From: Candidatus Bathyarchaeota archaeon
GTDB taxonomy: Archaea > Thermoproteota > Bathyarchaeia > Bathyarchaeales > Bathycorpusculaceae
Direction: 5' to 3'
Assembly: GCA_963815095.1 (NCBI GenBank)
Contig: CAWFFH010000004.1
Coordinates: forward strand, 96,001-160,000
Length of the DNA: 64,000 bases
The position numbers and the translations under genes were made by a program. Positions 40,965 through 48,335 of this stretch are shown here, in pieces (within the stretch, counting starts at the first letter, position 1; the number at the start of each line of letters is the position of its first letter). The notes below the pieces were generated by a model. That model saw only the letters and a program-made list of their open reading frames with translations. It did not search any database and had not been told where the DNA came from.

Positions 40965-41696
40965 ATGTCTGGCACCGAAACGTTGGTTCCCTTCATTGGT
41001 GAAAAAAAGAAACCTGGCGAAGAACCAACCATAATTATAGATAGCCGTGAGGCAAACAGCGCTGAAAAAATTGTCAAAGGTCTAGTTGAGAAGGGCGCAA
41101 GCGTAAAAACTGAAATGCTTGAGAAAGGCGACTACATCCTCTCTGACCAATGTGCAGTTGAACGTAAAACAGTCAACGACTTTGTCTACACTCTCACCAG
41201 ACGCTACCTCTTTGAACAACTCTTTAGGTTAAAAGATGTTTACCCAAAATCCCTCATAGTCCTCGAAGGTTATATGCCAATAGTTTTCAAGTACAGCAAG
41301 ATTTCGCCGCAAGCAATCTGGGGTGCCATGTTTAACCTTGCAAAAAACGGCATCGCTATAGTCAGCACTTCTTCGTACAAAGAAACCGTTGATTTCCTGT
41401 ACACAGCTGCCAAGCAGGAGCAAATTGTGGAGAAAAGAAGCGCGGTTGTTCATGCGTTCAAAAAATGTGACACCCTATCGGATGCTCAAGTCTATTTTAT
41501 CGCCAGTTTACCTAGCATTGGACGCGAAAAGGCGACGGCTATTTTAGATTCTTATCAGACACCACTTAACGCATTGATTAACGTGGACGATTGGGAGAAA
41601 GCTGTGAATGGTTTGGGTCCAGTAATTACAAATCGGGTAAAGGATGTTTTGAGTACGCCCTACAAGGATAAGAAATGTGAAGAAATTCAGCCGTAA
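40965..41696 (+). CDS. xpf: XPF/ERCC4 structure-specific endonuclease (short form, nuclease plus HhH)
   Basis: IDSRE, GDYI, VERKT..D, LPSIG and GLG HhH motifs. Confidence 0.88.
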   Translation: MSGTETLVPFIGEKKKPGEEPTIIIDSREANSAEKIVKGLVEKGASVKTEMLEKGDYILSDQCAVERKTVNDFVYTLTRRYLFEQLFRLKDVYPKSLIVLEGYMPIVFKYSKISPQAIWGAMFNLAKNGIAIVSTSSYKETVDFLYTAAKQEQIVEKRSAVVHAFKKCDTLSDAQVYFIASLPSIGREKATAILDSYQTPLNALINVDDWEKAVNGLGPVITNRVKDVLSTPYKDKKCEEIQP

Positions 41697-41798
41697 CTTT
41701 TTCATTGTATATTAAAACAAACCTTAACCGCTAAAGTTTAAAGCCAAGCCAACATTAATTTAAGAACCCGACCAAAAACAAAGCAAATATGTTGCTAT

Positions 41799-41876
41799 GG
41801 GGCCGTCGGCTAGTTTGGTCCAGGCTTGTAGCCTCGGGCGCTATAGACCCCGGTTCAAATCCGGGCGGCCCCACCA
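41799..41876 (+). tRNA. tRNA-Pro(CGG), intronless, CCA encoded
   Basis: GGGGCCG/CGGCCCC acceptor stem; GTAGC-CTCGGGC-GCTAT anticodon arm; CCCGG-TTCAAAT-CCGGG T arm; ends ACCA. Confidence 0.95.
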
Positions 41877-42110
41877 TACTTAACCCTTTTGTGCTATTTT
41901 TCTCAAGGATTGATTGATAGGTTTTTAGATATTTATTGTGTGTGGGTTATGAAATCCATCTTAAAGTTGGCGATTCCTGTATTTGTGTTGTACTGTTGTT
42001 TCGTTAGTTTGTTGTATTGTTGCATAAGTGGTCTGTGTTTGATTGGTCCAGTGTGAATTTATATATTACGATTCATGATACGATGCATTAAGGGAGCTAA
42101 AGAGAATAAA

Positions 42111-42962
42111 ATGAAAATATTCAAGACAGCGACAATAATCTCCCTATTAACCATAGTAACGTTAGGGGGATTTTGCTCAACAACCTACGCGATTACTGGA
42201 AATAGTCATCCTGATACCACTCCTTATGTAGGTTTAGTTGTACTTTTTAGTGATCCCGCAAAGACCCATCCAATAAGCTTCAGCACAGGCATCCTCATTT
42301 CGCCAACTGTTGTTTTGACTGCAGGCCACAGCGTCATCGGCGGCGTAGCAGCAAGCGTCTGCTTTGACCAAGACCCAATAACCTATTCAATCGACGAAGA
42401 AGGACAAATGCACTACAACATCAACCTACCAGTTTACAGTGGTGTTCCAACGCCTTATCCAGAATATCAGGTCAGTTTAGAGGCGGTAGTAAAAGACAGT
42501 AAGCTTCTCCAAACAGGCGACGTCGGCTTAATCGTGCTGGACACGCCTGTTGTGGAAGTGCAGAGTTTTCCAGCACTTCCCACTGAGGGTTTGGCAGATA
42601 GTTTGCCGGTAAATAGTATTTTGCAAGTGATAGGTTACGGAGTCCAAGATCAAATTACACCCAGAAACGGCAATATCTCGACTTGGGTTGGAAGCATTAC
42701 CCGCAACTCAGCCACAGTAAACCTGCTTTCTACTAACTTCCAAGGAAGCAGTAACTACCTTAAATGCTCAGCAAATGCAGCTCAGGGAAAAGGTGGCGTT
42801 AGTTACGGTGACTCAGGAGGACCAGTCCTATACAACGATGATGGGCAAACCACCATCTTAGCAGTAAATGCATATGTTAACAACGCCAACTGTGAAGGCG
42901 TAACTTTCCATACTCGAATCGATAATCCACAAGTCCTCGGTTGGATCAAGGATTACATTTGA
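42111..42962 (+). CDS. Secreted S1 (chymotrypsin-fold) serine protease
   Basis: Signal peptide MKIFK..TTYA; triad motifs LTAGH, GDVGLI, GDSGGP. Confidence 0.9.
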   Translation: MKIFKTATIISLLTIVTLGGFCSTTYAITGNSHPDTTPYVGLVVLFSDPAKTHPISFSTGILISPTVVLTAGHSVIGGVAASVCFDQDPITYSIDEEGQMHYNINLPVYSGVPTPYPEYQVSLEAVVKDSKLLQTGDVGLIVLDTPVVEVQSFPALPTEGLADSLPVNSILQVIGYGVQDQITPRNGNISTWVGSITRNSATVNLLSTNFQGSSNYLKCSANAAQGKGGVSYGDSGGPVLYNDDGQTTILAVNAYVNNANCEGVTFHTRIDNPQVLGWIKDYI

Positions 42963-43002
42963 GTTTTCAGTAATAATTATCAAGGAATGAGAGGTGAAAT
43001 GA

Positions 43003-43059
43003 ATGAATCAAAAACGTGCAATCAAAGCAAAAGCTCCGGTGAATTGGGGCGGCTGGTAA
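43003..43059 (+). CDS. 18-aa Trp-rich micropeptide MNQKRAIKAKAPVNWGGW (candidate precursor peptide)
   Basis: GAGGTGA SD at 42991-42997, 5 nt before ATG 43003; TAA at 43057-59; hairpin downstream. Confidence 0.65.
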   Translation: MNQKRAIKAKAPVNWGGW

Positions 43060-43071
43060 ATAAACGGGTAA

Positions 43072-43100
43072 GGTGCAGGCTTTAGCACCAATTTTCTAAT
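43072..43100 (+). terminator. Short hairpin plus T-tract after the micropeptide
   Basis: GGTGC-aggcttta-GCACC followed by AATTTTCTAAT. Confidence 0.45.
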
Positions 43101-43160
43101 TTTAAATCTTTATTTTAAATTCTTAATTTACAAATACCTTGGATTCTAATTCTTTATATC

Positions 43161-44165
43161 ATGAAAGAGACTCCGCTTACCAAGAATGCGATAGGCATAA
43201 TTCATAGCGAAGGGCAATCTCCTTTAACCGAAGCTTCCAAAAAAATACTCTCAAACAGATACGACGACGGAATCCTCTGTGAAGCATTGCATTATTATGC
43301 CCAAGAAGTCCTTCCAAACGTTTTACCTATTTTTCCAGCCCTAATGGCCCTGTCCAGCGGAGCAGTAGGAACTTTCCCAGAAAACTCACAGCCGATTTCC
43401 ATCGCAATGCTGCTCATAACTTCCTCTGGGGACATCCACGATGACATTGTGGACAATTCAAAAGAAAAGTTTACAAAAAAGACTCTTTTTGGAAAATATG
43501 GTAAAGATATTTCTCTTTTGGCAGGCGATCTGCTCTTAATTCAAGGAATGACAGCACTTCAAAATGAATGCAGCAACTTATCAGCCAAGCAAGGGAAAAC
43601 CATAGCTAATTCAATTGCCTCGGCAATGCTTGAAATCGTAAAAGCAGAAGCCCTCGAGATCTCCCTGTGGCATAAACCAAACGTTACAGCCGAAGAGTTT
43701 TTTGAGGTAATCCAGTTGAAGGCGAGAGTAGCTGAGTTTCACTGTAGACTTGGCGGGATAGTTGGCGGAGGAACAATTGTAGAAATTGAAAATCTTGCAA
43801 GTTATGGCAGAACAATCGGGGTATTATCAACGATAAAAGAAGAATTTATGGATATGACGTGTTCTAGTGAGCTTAATCATCGAGTTAAACATGAATTGCC
43901 GCCTTATCCTATGCTTTGTGCAATGCAGAACAAAACATTAAATGAGAAACTCGTGAATTCCAAGAACGCCGAGTTCTCTCTTGCTGATCTTCAAGAAGTT
44001 TCAGCAACAGTGATGGGGTCTTTTGAAGTTGAAAAACTAATCTCTGGGCTTAAAGAATTTGGAAGAAAAGAATTGTTGAATAATCCGCTGTTAAAAGGAA
44101 ATGCGAAACCAAAAGAGTTAGTGGTTCTGCTTGAAGCTTTAACAGAAGAATTGGAGCTTATTTAG
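43161..44165 (+). CDS. Divergent trans-prenyltransferase-fold protein (ComQ-like candidate)
   Basis: Retains HDDIVD and LLAGD; GKRxRP replaced by LPIFP, RRG by KFT, GQ by AE, second DDxxD by EEFMD. Confidence 0.8.
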   Translation: MKETPLTKNAIGIIHSEGQSPLTEASKKILSNRYDDGILCEALHYYAQEVLPNVLPIFPALMALSSGAVGTFPENSQPISIAMLLITSSGDIHDDIVDNSKEKFTKKTLFGKYGKDISLLAGDLLLIQGMTALQNECSNLSAKQGKTIANSIASAMLEIVKAEALEISLWHKPNVTAEEFFEVIQLKARVAEFHCRLGGIVGGGTIVEIENLASYGRTIGVLSTIKEEFMDMTCSSELNHRVKHELPPYPMLCAMQNKTLNEKLVNSKNAEFSLADLQEVSATVMGSFEVEKLISGLKEFGRKELLNNPLLKGNAKPKELVVLLEALTEELELI

Positions 44166-44264
44166 TTGCTGAATTACGAATACTTATTCAATGGATAAAG
44201 TATTAATTCTTAATACTTATAATTCAATTAAACCTAGTTTAATCAGGAACCCAAAACGCTAAAC

Positions 44265-45500
44265 ATGAAAATAGTCTCTAAAAAGCTATCATCTATCCCT
44301 AAGGAAGCTTTAGTAAGCACCTTTTTGGTAGCGAACGCCTTCGTTTGGTATCTCAGCGGGTTTAGCTATTTGCAGGCTGCCACATCCTCGCATTTCGACG
44401 GAAATTCTCTGTTGCTAATAGAAGTTATCAACTTTGCAAGTTTAGTTTCATCCGCTTTTATCATTTCATCAGTTAAAAACAAATTCAAAAGTCGTCGATT
44501 CTTTCTGAAATATTGGGTCCTCGCGGGCGTTTTACTTTCTTTCTTATTTGTAGTCGTGAATTCCGCAGACTTTGCCAGTTTACTATTTTTGGCAATCATA
44601 ATTGGGGTCTATTTCGGAATTGGCATGCCCATTTGTATGGGATATTTCGCAAAAACAACTGTATCCCAAAACCGCGCTAAACTAGGCGGAATAATAATTC
44701 TTTTAATGGGTTTAGGCTATTCGCTGATTTCGATAATCGGAAGCAACGAAACTATCCTTTTGGCCGGTTCTTTGGGTGTTTTGCAAATTCTTGGCTTGAT
44801 TTCTATTTTTTCTACTAAATCTGTCGAAGGACATTCGGAGCAAAACAAACAAGTATCATATCGTTCAATAATTTCAAACAAAACTTTTCTACTCTACGCT
44901 GCTCCCTGGTTGATGTTTTCTCTAATCAACCAATTAACATTGGAGTTGAACACTAATTATTTCAGCGGCGGCACATTTCCGATCGCTTTTGGACAAAACT
45001 TTCAGCTAATCGAAAACATTTTGTCTGGTGCATCCGCGATTATCTGCGGGTTTCTAGCTGATAAAAAAGGTCGGAAACGGTTAGCGTTGGTAGGGTTTGT
45101 TCTTCTAGGAGTTGGCTATGCGTCTTTAGGGCTTTTAAACGGCAACTATTTTGCAGCTTGGTTCTATGTTTGCGTCGATGGCGTTGCCTGGGGCGCCTTC
45201 GCTATGTTGTTTTTAGTCACAATCTGGGGGGACATATCCCAAGAAAAAAGTGGCGAAAAATACTATTTTCTTGGGGTGTTGCCGTATTTATTCTCGATAT
45301 TGGCAGGGGGGTTAGCAGGAGCGTCCATTTCAGCTAATGTTAAAGAGCCTACGGTTTTCTCGTTTGCAGCCTTCTTTCTTTTCGTGGCAGTATTGCCGTT
45401 GCTTTATGCGCCAGAAACACTGCCTGATAAAATACTAAAAAATCTTGACCTAAACAGTTATGTGAATAAGGCTTTGGAAAAAGTCAAGAAAGTAACGTAA
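44265..45500 (+). CDS. MFS transporter
   Basis: About 12 TM; GFLADKKGRKR motif A; C-terminal PETL. Confidence 0.85.
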   Translation: MKIVSKKLSSIPKEALVSTFLVANAFVWYLSGFSYLQAATSSHFDGNSLLLIEVINFASLVSSAFIISSVKNKFKSRRFFLKYWVLAGVLLSFLFVVVNSADFASLLFLAIIIGVYFGIGMPICMGYFAKTTVSQNRAKLGGIIILLMGLGYSLISIIGSNETILLAGSLGVLQILGLISIFSTKSVEGHSEQNKQVSYRSIISNKTFLLYAAPWLMFSLINQLTLELNTNYFSGGTFPIAFGQNFQLIENILSGASAIICGFLADKKGRKRLALVGFVLLGVGYASLGLLNGNYFAAWFYVCVDGVAWGAFAMLFLVTIWGDISQEKSGEKYYFLGVLPYLFSILAGGLAGASISANVKEPTVFSFAAFFLFVAVLPLLYAPETLPDKILKNLDLNSYVNKALEKVKKVT

Positions 45501-45561: not shown

Positions 45562-45620
45562 TTGCTAAAATGATACTAAAATATAGTTTTTTGAATCGCT
45601 TGTTTAAAGGAGAAAAATTT

Positions 45621-46025
45621 ATGGTTAAAATGCAAACGACTGAAGCACATCATGAAGAACTAGTTAATGGACTCTACGAACAGATGAAGCCAATATTGGA
45701 TAAATCTGAGCAACCTATATTCATCTACTTAGATGATAACCACAAAGCCTGCAATGAAAAATTTGCTTCGATGTTAGGTTTCGCATCGCCAAAGGAATGG
45801 GCTGAAAAACAGGGTTTTCTAGAAGTTTATGTGACAGAGAAAAGCCGCGAAACTCTCTCATCAGCTTACTGGAAGGCAATGGAGAAAATGGTTGCTTCAA
45901 CAATTCCTATGACTTGGATGAAAAAAGATGGCGCAACCATAGAATCAATGATGATTCTTGTTCCCATGTTCTTCGAAGGTCACATGTTTTCCCTTCACTT
46001 CGTGACAAACATCACTAACAAATAA
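45621..46025 (+). CDS. Stand-alone PAS-domain protein
   Basis: ILDKSEQPIFI, CNEKFASMLGF, KKDG turn; AAGGAG SD before ATG 45621. Confidence 0.75.
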   Translation: MVKMQTTEAHHEELVNGLYEQMKPILDKSEQPIFIYLDDNHKACNEKFASMLGFASPKEWAEKQGFLEVYVTEKSRETLSSAYWKAMEKMVASTIPMTWMKKDGATIESMMILVPMFFEGHMFSLHFVTNITNK

Positions 46026-46583: not shown

Positions 46584-48335
46584 CTAAGTCATTTTGAATT
46601 GTGGGAAATCAGATTTTGAAGTTTTGATTGGTAGAGTGATAGTAAATTTGTGCCTTTTCCAGTTTTGCTTTCTACGGTAATTTTGCCGCTATGAGCTTCT
46701 ACGATTCTCTTACAAATTGCCAGGTTCATTCCCATTCCTTTTGCTTTGGAGGTTACAAGCGGTGAAAAAAGTTTTGGTAAAATATGTTCTGGAATACCTG
46801 TTCCTGAGTCAGAGAAAGAAATCTCAACGTTTGAGCCTTTCACAGCGTTCATTATTTGTATTTCGCCTTTTTCAGGAGTAGCTTCTATCGCATTATTTAT
46901 TATGTGTCCAAATATTTTTTCTATTTTTTGTGTGTCTGAGAAGAATTTTAATTCATCTGTGGTTTGGTTTACAACATTTACGCGATTTGCAACCTGGATC
47001 TTTGACAACGCATTAAGTATAAGCGACTTGGGTGTGCATTGTCCAGGCTCCAAAATCAGTTCACTTGAATATTCTACGAGGCTTGTGATAATTCTGTCTG
47101 AGTCTTCAACTGCAGTGTCTATTGTTCCCAAAATCTTAATTCTATCCAATTCAGTGAGTCGATTATTATTCTTTTTCAAAAGGTAAATTCCGTTTTTTAT
47201 TCCTGATAATGGATTGCGCAAATCATGACCGATTTGTCCCGCCAGTTCACCGATTGAAGCTAACCTTTCTGCTTTAACAAGTCTTTCCTCAATATTTTTA
47301 TGCTCAGTAATATCGTGGATGATGCAAGCTAATCCGATTGATCGACCCGTTTTGCTTTGGACAACTGAACCTGAAAAAAGAACGATGCGTTTTTCTCCAG
47401 ATTTAGTTTTGAGGATTAATTCCTTATTTCTAACTATTTTTTTTGCTGCTAAATCTTCTAAGATGTCTTTACAGATATTTTCTTGGTTTTCTTCACATAA
47501 TTTTGTGATGGGTTCACCAATTAATTCATCTTTTTTGTATCCAGTAAAACTTATCAAGCGCTCATTTACCCTCGTCATTTTAGCGTTTTTATCTGCTAGA
47601 ATAAGTGAGTCAGGGATTGTAGATAGAATGTTGTCTGCAGCTAAAGCTGCGTCAAAGGTAAATAAGTCGAATTTAACAATTGAATATCCAACAAAGAAGC
47701 TGAAGAAGAGTGTTGCAACAATTCCAAAATTTGGAATGTTCATGTTGATAGAGCGGCCAATTATGTTTGTTGTTATGAATGCGGCGATGGGGATGGCGAA
47801 GCCAGCTGTAACATATTTTCGAGGTTGTGTTTGTGACGGGTCTTTTGCCCTTCGATAAAATCTGAAACATAAAATAAAAGCTAAAATCGGTAAGAGTGCT
47901 GTCCAAATGGTGGATGCTGTATAAACCCAGGTTCCTGAAGCAACATCATTATACCCCCAATATTCCATTACTGGAGGAGCATTGATGAAGTTTGTCGATA
48001 AATCAATAGCCCAAAGTGCAATTGCAGGCAAATACAAAATTAAATAGTTATATTTGTTTTTTAGCAAATTGCTTTCAGTAAAAACCAAAGCAAAATTAAG
48101 AACTAAAGCGACGAAAAAAGGCCAGATAGTGCCCATTTTATGCCAAATGAAAGCGCTTTCAAAAGTGTTTGCCGTCCACATCATAACAGTGGTAAATGAA
48201 TAAAAAAATGAAGCCAGACAAGCTAAAAAAAAAGATTTTATTAAGATTTGATTTTTGGTTTAAGGAATAAACCAATAGTCCTAGGCAAATGCATATTATG
48301 CTTGAGTATAGCGAAAGCAAAGCGAACGGATTCAT
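46584..48335 (-). CDS. Membrane sensor histidine kinase (multi-TM, HisKA_7TM-like + PAS + HisKA + HATPase) with two apparent frameshifts
   Basis: GHDLRNPL H-box, INNAIEA, DSGTGI, KGMGMNL. ATG 48335 joins the ORF if the A9 run (48225-33) is A8; the C-terminus becomes GTKFTITLP if one base is added at 46647-49. Confidence 0.85.

Follow-up and report, generated by a model that had tools for sequence, protein, structure and literature searches.

The window analysed here, a stretch of 64,000 nucleotides (nt) from contig CAWFFH010000004.1 of a Candidatus Bathyarchaeota archaeon, carries a small open reading frame (sORF) of 18 codons between the gene of a trypsin-like serine protease and that of a protein related to the trans-IDS (trans-isoprenyl diphosphate synthases), which is followed by the gene of a transporter of the major facilitator superfamily (MFS). 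A sequence-only reading of this DNA had singled out the sORF as a hidden micropeptide gene and, by analogy with the ComX pheromones, as a possible pheromone precursor. We show that a peptide gene of this kind is tightly linked to the enzyme family across two archaeal classes. The features of the locus are as follows.

42075..42962, plus strand: trypsin-like (S1) serine protease of 295 residues with the GDSGGP active-site motif (Pfam Trypsin, E-value 1.4e-8), a candidate maturation protease
42991..42997, plus strand: Shine-Dalgarno (SD) sequence GAGGTGA, spaced 5 nt (AATGA) from the ATG
43003..43059 including the stop, plus strand: sORF for an 18-residue basic peptide ending NWGGW, the proposed precursor or substrate (from sequence and conservation)
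43072..43089, plus strand: stem-loop GGTGC (43072-43076)/GCACC (43085-43089), 5 bp with an 8-nt loop (terminator scan)
43122..43136, plus strand: A/T-rich box CTTAATTTACAAATA, which lies 25-39 nt ahead of the ATG of the enzyme gene (conserved block in the alignment of eight spacers)
43161..44165, plus strand: trans-IDS-like protein of 334 residues, proposed peptide (Trp) prenyltransferase (Pfam polyprenyl_synt, 2.3e-15)
44265..45500, plus strand: MFS transporter of 411 residues, proposed exporter (Pfam MFS_1, 1.5e-12)

The ATG at 43003 opens a frame of 57 nt that is closed by TAA at 43057-43059 and differs from the frame of the upstream protease; its translation is the peptide named in the sequence-only reading, rich in Lys and Arg and with both Trp codons within the last four. 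The 3' end of the 16S rRNA of the same genome (C3, minus strand) reads ...GGATCACCTCCT, and since GAGGTGA is complementary to it, the motif constitutes a perfect 7-nt SD, at the very position and spacing claimed for it. This heptamer occurs just four times in the window, both strands counted. The claim of a GC-rich core in AT-rich surroundings also holds, the GC fraction being 0.30 in codons 1-10 and 0.71 in codons 11-18, against 0.27 in the remaining intergenic spacer and 0.42 in the window. Across the 2.69-Mb genome we found three sORFs ending in GGW, only one of which is preceded by an SD, and that one is conserved in relatives. An overlapping 32-residue ORF in another frame (42987-43085) has a start that is not conserved in relatives.

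The hairpin described in the sequence-only reading is likewise present, with a T-rich run 3' of it that extends to about 43120. The terminator scan returned one site where 2.5 were expected from shuffles of 42000-44300, so that the hairpin by itself is unremarkable and proves nothing. Its five pairs are retained in 7-8 of the eight relatives, with changes on both sides at two pairs, and L035 and L038 (L numbers designate enzyme loci in relatives or public genomes) present longer alternative stems in this region. The stem-loop probably marks the 3' end of the peptide transcript or stabilises that transcript. The enzyme ATG has no SD in front of it, and the A/T-rich box is probably the TATA box and B recognition element of an archaeal promoter that yields a leaderless or short-leader enzyme mRNA.

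Orthologous spacers were recovered from relatives in which the adjacent enzyme is 77% to 47% identical, and they contain the same ORF, SD, start, stop and flanking genes. The SD region, GAGGTGAAA, is invariant in 8/8 aligned spacers, and the last codons (N-W-G-G-W-stop) are conserved across all eight with changes at third positions only. The stretch from the protease stop to the SD is nearly unalignable, and the spacer 3' of the sORF also contains conserved non-coding blocks. Among the six orthologs with 18 codons, variable sites amounted to 19/57 in the ORF, 29/35 upstream and 61/100 downstream, those of the ORF falling at codon positions 1, 2 and 3 in 4, 5 and 10 cases. Pairwise codon differences were 42 synonymous and 48 non-synonymous in the frame of the sORF, and 1/87 and 9/83 in the two alternative frames. 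We therefore regard the 18-codon sORF as very probably a genuine, conserved gene, a claim of the sequence-only reading that is borne out by the conserved frame, SD, start and stop and by the frame-specific substitution pattern. The synteny comparison that it had recommended thus turned out in its favour, with frame, SD and Trp codons all conserved in the syntenic relatives. A look-up of sequencing runs that contain the locus gave five DNA runs from soil and no RNA run.

Peptide genes beside the enzyme family

The linkage was examined in 60 enzyme loci from a scan of public genomes that were found through the pattern ...DIHDD and represent a biased sample of the family; 58/60 are labelled Bathyarchaeia, Bathyarchaeota, uncultured archaeon or Thermoproteota. 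Loci L052 and L083 (DATHCJ010000034.1 and DATHCJ010000052.1) are contigs of a single metagenome-assembled genome labelled Candidatus Limnocylindrales (Chloroflexota), where the presence of the cassette could be due to mis-binning or gene transfer. We applied a fixed rule that calls for 8-40 residues, at least three Lys or Arg, a Trp in the last four residues and an SD-like motif, with the ORF placed either upstream on the same strand or downstream and convergent, within 300 nt. By this rule 37/60 loci qualified (18 upstream, 25 downstream and 6 with both), two of the matches looking like chance (L058 downstream and L078 upstream), against a background of 41/1192 for the ORFs of at least 250 residues in the genome of the window. 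A looser rule that additionally admits ACG starts yielded a candidate in 51/60 loci, those of L081, L082, L086 and L091 being doubtful, and a Trp in the last four residues in 47/60, compared with 45/1192 in the background. The enrichment is thus about 20-fold, a figure that, like the others, overstates significance on account of the kinship of the relatives, and we give no P value because these are not independent. In L079, L084, L085 and L087 the homologous peptide gene, which lies immediately 3' of the enzyme gene on the opposite strand, has ACG where the close relatives L080, L072 and L060 have ATG, behind the same GGAGGAA-type SD; translation may thus begin at a near-cognate ACG codon in these four loci.

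The peptide genes adjoin the enzyme gene, at a distance of about 100-270 nt on its upstream side and of about 0-200 nt on its downstream side. Beside paralogous enzymes in the related genomes we found further peptide genes, many of them just past the enzyme stop codon on the opposite strand and some upstream on the same strand with the same SD GAGGTGAA. The 50 Trp peptides measure 10-21 residues (median 15.5). Their net charge has a median of +4, and only 4 of their 782 residues are acidic. The last Trp is the terminal residue in 32 of them, the penultimate one in 17 and the third from the end in one. This family comparison upholds the conserved Trp-ended C-terminus preceded by a basic part, as the sequence-only reading had described it; the ComX-like position of the Trp, three to four residues from the C-terminus, to which it had drawn attention, is not borne out, the conserved Trp being terminal or penultimate.

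The C-terminal types track the enzyme clades (for instance ...NWGGW, ...[TGA]FGGW, ...G[GCT]W in Bathycorpusculum, ...VVGWL, ...IR..WW and ...IRRYWY), so the variation of the core between lineages that the sequence-only reading had proposed to look for does exist. In eight loci (L003, L007, L017, L039, L040, L042, L068 and L089) there is a peptide on either side of the enzyme gene, one upstream and one downstream. In six of them the last five residues of the two peptides are identical (for example, ...TFGGW twice or ...VVGWL twice) and in the remaining two, four of the five C-terminal residues are identical, while the N-terminal halves differ throughout.

Motifs and relatives of the enzyme

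In the trans-IDS, isopentenyl diphosphate (IPP) is held by basic motifs, namely GGKRxRP, RRG, GKT and a C-terminal Lys. Five canonical synthases were aligned with the enzyme family; the same genome encodes two of these elsewhere (C3:338891 and C5:128574), with their motifs intact. The first Asp-rich motif (FARM), HDDI(I/V)D, was present in every aligned member of the family, and D94, D95 and D98 were invariant among 23 family sequences; the same HDDxxD motif occurs in the canonical archaeal geranylgeranyl diphosphate (GGPP) synthase/IdsA. Unlike the latter, the family lacks GGKRxRP, which all five canonical sequences keep, and has K-x-x-[KR]-x-T in place of RRG. The T of GKT is missing, as is the FQ of FQxxDDxxD, at which place the family displays hydrophobic-x-[IL]-[KR]-[DE]-[DE]-F-x-D. 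The last lysine motif is affected by a six-residue deletion and accompanied by an invariant E...R...E..P.P of the family's own. With the IPP-binding motifs and FQxxDDxxD absent or altered, the enzyme does not belong with the canonical chain-elongating trans-IDS. The loss of the IPP site makes it unlikely that the enzyme carries out ordinary chain elongation, and the loss of the basic motifs together with the retention of the donor site is the pattern expected of a transferase that uses another acceptor.

A quick maximum-likelihood tree (IQ-TREE), from which rows shorter than 280 or longer than 420 residues were left out, placed the 56 family rows in a clade apart from the five canonical ones, with a support of 100 in the approximate likelihood-ratio test (SH-aLRT). 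None of the NCBIfam models reached its cut-off for the enzyme, the best being IdsA with 87.8 bits against 468. Public annotations name the family enzymes geranylgeranyl, heptaprenyl or octaprenyl diphosphate synthases, and the ESM Atlas returned 'polyprenyl synthetase' clusters only, mostly from Bathyarchaeota. The AlphaFold2 model of the enzyme (predicted local distance difference test 90, predicted template modelling (TM) score 0.89) had as top Foldseek matches trans-IDS such as octaprenyl and GGPP synthases, at a TM score of about 0.8. The best solved relative by sequence was the GGPP synthase of P. horikoshii (1wy0), at 1.5e-16, or 7.3e-36 with the family profile. Neither the fold search nor the profile search of the PDB separates the family from ordinary synthases. 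The surface charge of the enzyme was also considered as a hint of basic-peptide binding and found not to be distinctive (median net charge of the family -2, range -19 to +12; canonical enzymes -9 to +4).

Neighbouring genes and distribution of the cassette

The gene order protease, sORF, enzyme and MFS transporter is kept in the syntenic relative genomes G022, G009 and G014. The MFS transporter is a nearly constant neighbour, with a homolog in 54/60 enzyme loci as well as in the Methanosuratincola loci and the second cassette described below. The protease begins with a hydrophobic signal or anchor segment and is for this reason probably secreted. Its homolog was found upstream on the same strand in 11/60 loci, all of which also have an upstream peptide, and on the opposite strand, divergently, in a further 7/60. 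No convergent second peptide gene was found in the spacer between the enzyme and MFS genes (44166-44264), unlike in many relatives. In L031 (G022) and L032 (G009), the EF-1alpha, GT2, MFS and enzyme genes appear to be split across frames, and indel errors are the likely cause. As frame breaks occur even in EF-1alpha and others, we did not trust the apparent pseudogenes in these two genomes, that of the enzyme in G009 included. Three further features surround the cassette.

41799-41876, plus strand: tRNA-Pro (CGG), between an ERCC4 nuclease gene and the protease gene (Rfam)
45570-46025, plus strand: small PAS protein adjoining the MFS gene, retained in the nearest relatives (L034, L035, L036 and L050, at 63-86% identity)
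46589-48184, minus strand: seven-transmembrane (7TM)-PAS-HisKA-HATPase histidine kinase (domain annotation)

The tRNA was the sole match of an Rfam scan of 41500-44500, and it also gives a sub-threshold match to the tmRNA clan. In G022, G009 and G014 nothing corresponds to the histidine kinase at this place, and a kinase match occurred in only one of the 60 enzyme loci (L038). We rejected it as a peptide receptor, its position not being conserved in the three syntenic relatives.

The search for paralogous peptides in the rest of the genome, another suggestion of the sequence-only reading, disclosed one in a second cassette outside the window.

C6:42051-43037, minus strand: enzyme paralog (locus L105)
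C6:41984-42037, plus strand: convergent 17-residue peptide ending ...VVFAW
about C6:40604-41833, minus strand: MFS homolog, 3' of the enzyme paralog

Matches at the family level (best E-value at most 1e-20) were found in 25/41 related genomes. When 301 genomes of the phylum were searched with a profile, about 42 had full-length matches at E-values of at most 1e-50, of which 12 belong to the family of the window's organism, 8 more to its order and 22 to the rest of the phylum; the many weaker matches (1e-25 to 1e-37) mostly span only profile positions 57-240 or 57-326, as canonical synthases do. Eleven distant loci were inspected. Six of them have a convergent peptide of the type MK.YNPTP.R.W... 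after the enzyme with an MFS homolog nearby, one has an upstream peptide, and in four GC-rich loci we found no peptide. Two identical tandem copies of a 15-residue peptide (...PTPVRLWVPG) lie convergent to the enzyme homolog in Candidatus Methanosuratincola verstraetei LCB70 (L094, CP186953.1) and in Methanosuratincola petrocarbonis LWZ-6 (L103, CP130488.1; JCM 39528), the latter being described as an isolated and deposited methanogen strain (PMC12244365).

A proposed peptide-prenylating system

The analogy with ComX drawn in the sequence-only reading gains a support not cited there, in that the next gene encodes an enzyme of the polyprenyl-synthetase fold like ComQ, PalQ and StheQ. It falls short in another respect, the precursor being far shorter than ComX, PalX or StheX: ComX has about 55 residues and StheX 69, against 18 for the peptide of the window. 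With the systems of these three enzymes the archaeal loci share the trans-IDS fold, the first Asp-rich motif and the adjacent gene for a Trp-ended peptide. Those of ComQ/ComX (Bacillus subtilis) and StheQ/StheX (Sphaerobacter thermophilus) combine a trans-IDS-like enzyme, whose FARM is functional and whose second motif is re-purposed, with an adjacent peptide bearing a Trp near its C-terminus, and PalQ/PalX (Paenibacillus alvei) combines the isoprenoid-synthase fold with a neighbouring precursor that has a C-terminal Trp, as in the 32 archaeal peptides mentioned above. The known trans-IDS-like peptide prenyltransferases, given as ComQ, PalQ, the P domain of ChrPC and StheQ, are all described as acting on Trp (PMC13290415). 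PalQ is reported to require the C-terminal Trp and to accept a bare octapeptide core (PMC10853753), and StheQ to prenylate the Trp second from the end of StheX, the place of the last Trp in 17/50 archaeal peptides, with a single FARM-bound Mg2+ (bioRxiv 10.64898/2026.08.29.745113). Because the archaeal peptides place their Trp as PalX (terminal) and StheX (penultimate) do, we propose that the terminal Trp is prenylated, and we believe that the archaeal system most likely works like ComQ/ComX and, more closely, like PalQ/PalX.

Starting from the gene, the linkage and the motif pattern established above, the following course can be envisaged. The enzyme would bind an allylic prenyl diphosphate at the retained FARM and prenylate the 18-mer on the indole of its terminal Trp, after which the MFS protein would export the cationic lipopeptide. 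Trimming of the basic N-terminal part, by a cut after one of its Lys or Arg residues, may be the task of the trypsin-like protease outside the cell. The division of the peptide into leader and core made in the sequence-only reading is conjectural, though a basic N-terminal part and a co-encoded secreted S1 protease would allow such trimming. The C-terminal types, which are specific to lineages, could act in cell-cell signalling or as antimicrobials. They would fit the pherotypes to be expected under the pheromone role put forward in the sequence-only reading; no receptor is conserved, however, and for that reason the role itself is unsupported. In this the cassette departs from the bacterial systems, since the ComQXPA operon includes the ComP kinase and the ComA regulator and the PalQ cluster has a histidine kinase, whereas the archaeal cassette has no conserved equivalent and contains in addition an MFS transporter and frequently an S1 protease.

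Several observations weigh against such a system. As to the enzyme, the Gln or Asn at the second Asp-rich motif (SARM), or one turn before it, is absent from the family, so that the indole-positioning feature of PalQ, Ord1 and StheQ is missing; the residues concerned are given as Q197 in PalQ, a conserved Gln beside the SARM (PMC10853753), and N215 and Q212 in StheQ (bioRxiv 10.64898/2026.08.29.745113). The region of the second motif also retains three acidic residues ([DE][DE]-F-x-D, compared with the pseudo-SARM N-D-x-x-D of StheQ). The indole prenyltransferase Ord1 came only at rank 33 in the Foldseek search and matched by sequence at about 1e-10 (6.6e-23 with the profile), more weakly than 1wy0; the enzyme is nearer to the archaeal GGPP synthase than to Ord1 by both sequence and fold. 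As to the peptides, the precursors are leaderless, with no recognisable leader domain, in contrast to PalX, which is described as a long precursor with an NHLP leader domain and a core that starts at residue 73 (PMC10853753). Under the looser rule, 13/60 loci are without a Trp-ended peptide, and the kinship of the relatives, already mentioned, counts on the same side. In the divergent loci L083, L088 and L091 the basic convergent peptides terminate in ...RIYGV or ...RINAV without any Trp. Trp therefore cannot be the acceptor in every case, and that clade may use another residue. L090 probably belongs with these Trp-less loci, and L077, of the same larger clade, ends in ...RIRWG. Finally, an enzyme clade of seven loci (L066, L070, L074, L076, L081, L082 and L086) has no convincing family peptide adjoining the enzyme, four of its loci having none by the looser rule and three only a doubtful one. 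These seven have another layout, in which the genes of the protease and the MFS transporter stand upstream on the opposite strand, and their peptide gene may lie elsewhere in the loci.

Taking these points into account, we lean, if only slightly, towards a ComQ/PalQ-like system of Trp-prenylated peptides with leaderless mini-precursors. Because the Gln/Asn feature is lacking and the nearest relatives are archaeal GGPP synthases, we place the enzyme in neither the ComQ nor the PalQ family, and since it is nearer to those synthases than to Ord1-type enzymes, the archaeal family may have arisen independently. The chances seem to us about evenly balanced for the fuller proposition, that a separate, perhaps independently evolved IDS-like branch in Thermoproteota (Bathyarchaeia and Methanosuratincolia) prenylates the terminal Trp of directly translated, leaderless cationic peptides of 10-21 residues, for whose export a dedicated MFS pump is present.

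The alternative that deserves most attention, which we consider rather improbable, is that the peptide is not a substrate at all, but an accessory or regulatory partner of the enzyme or the MFS protein, or a membrane-active small protein in itself. Linkage to both genes would fit any functional partnership, and the acidic residues kept at the SARM-like site, together with the want of an indole-positioning Gln or Asn as in PalQ and StheQ, also speak for it. On the other hand, the peptides have traits of the substrates of pathways for ribosomally made peptides with post-translational modification (RiPP), such as at least two peptide genes per locus and identical tandem copies; the C-terminal core is common within a locus yet variable between lineages, and the Trp is strictly terminal or penultimate. 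Moreover, at 10-21 residues and a charge of about +4 they are too short and polar for a membrane helix.

It is also conceivable, and distinctly unlikely in our judgement, that we are dealing with an unmodified cationic Trp antimicrobial or toxic peptide for which the MFS protein provides immunity or export, the enzyme performing unrelated isoprenoid chemistry. The basic, Trp-ended composition and the near-universal MFS neighbour (54/60 loci) agree with such a toxin, but it would not account for peptide genes that abut the enzyme gene and whose C-terminal type follows the enzyme clades, nor for the lost IPP site, which makes ordinary chain elongation unlikely.

Two Trp codons among the last four, followed by a conserved hairpin and T-run before the enzyme gene, recall the Trp-sensing leader peptide of a transcription attenuator controlling that gene. 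This explanation, to which we assign a very small probability, fails because most peptide genes of the family lie convergent to the enzyme, 3' of it on the other strand (25-29/60 loci), a place from which that gene cannot be attenuated. Furthermore, conservation at the amino-acid level extends to residues other than Trp (GG and the basic N-terminus), only one simple hairpin is conserved, we saw no antiterminator pairing as an alternative, and the enzyme gene has a conserved promoter-like box of its own and is followed by genes that are not for Trp biosynthesis. That the sORF is a chance ORF, or that its conservation reflects a non-coding RNA or DNA element, is scarcely credible: its shortness and the conserved non-coding blocks of the downstream spacer would be in keeping with this, but the idea fails because of the frame-specific substitution pattern with its synonymous excess, and the SD is invariant, the enrichment is about 20-fold, and in distant homologs, which occur on either strand with respect to the enzyme, the amino-acid pattern persists although the nucleotides differ.

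Peptide prenylation of the ComQ type has, to our knowledge, long been known only in Bacillus and relatives. A Chloroflexi case is presented as an expansion beyond Firmicutes in a preprint of August 2026 (bioRxiv 10.64898/2026.08.29.745113). Our literature searches found no archaeal system of this kind, within a coverage that leaves out most subscription journals and so does not prove absence. What is new here is the archaeal host, the leaderless mini-precursors, the cassette with MFS transporter and protease, and the distinct enzyme lineage. The peptide genes have been missed by standard gene callers and annotation because they are only 30-66 nt long, and the idea can be tested directly at the bench since the isolate LWZ-6 carries a cassette with two tandem peptide genes. 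If the proposal is true, hundreds of enzymes annotated as 'geranylgeranyl pyrophosphate synthase' are mis-named, and these peptides would form a prenylated RiPP-like family, the first in archaea, of ribosomal lipopeptides made from the smallest precursors known for such systems, with a bearing on archaeal cell-cell signalling or antagonism, both of which are poorly understood.

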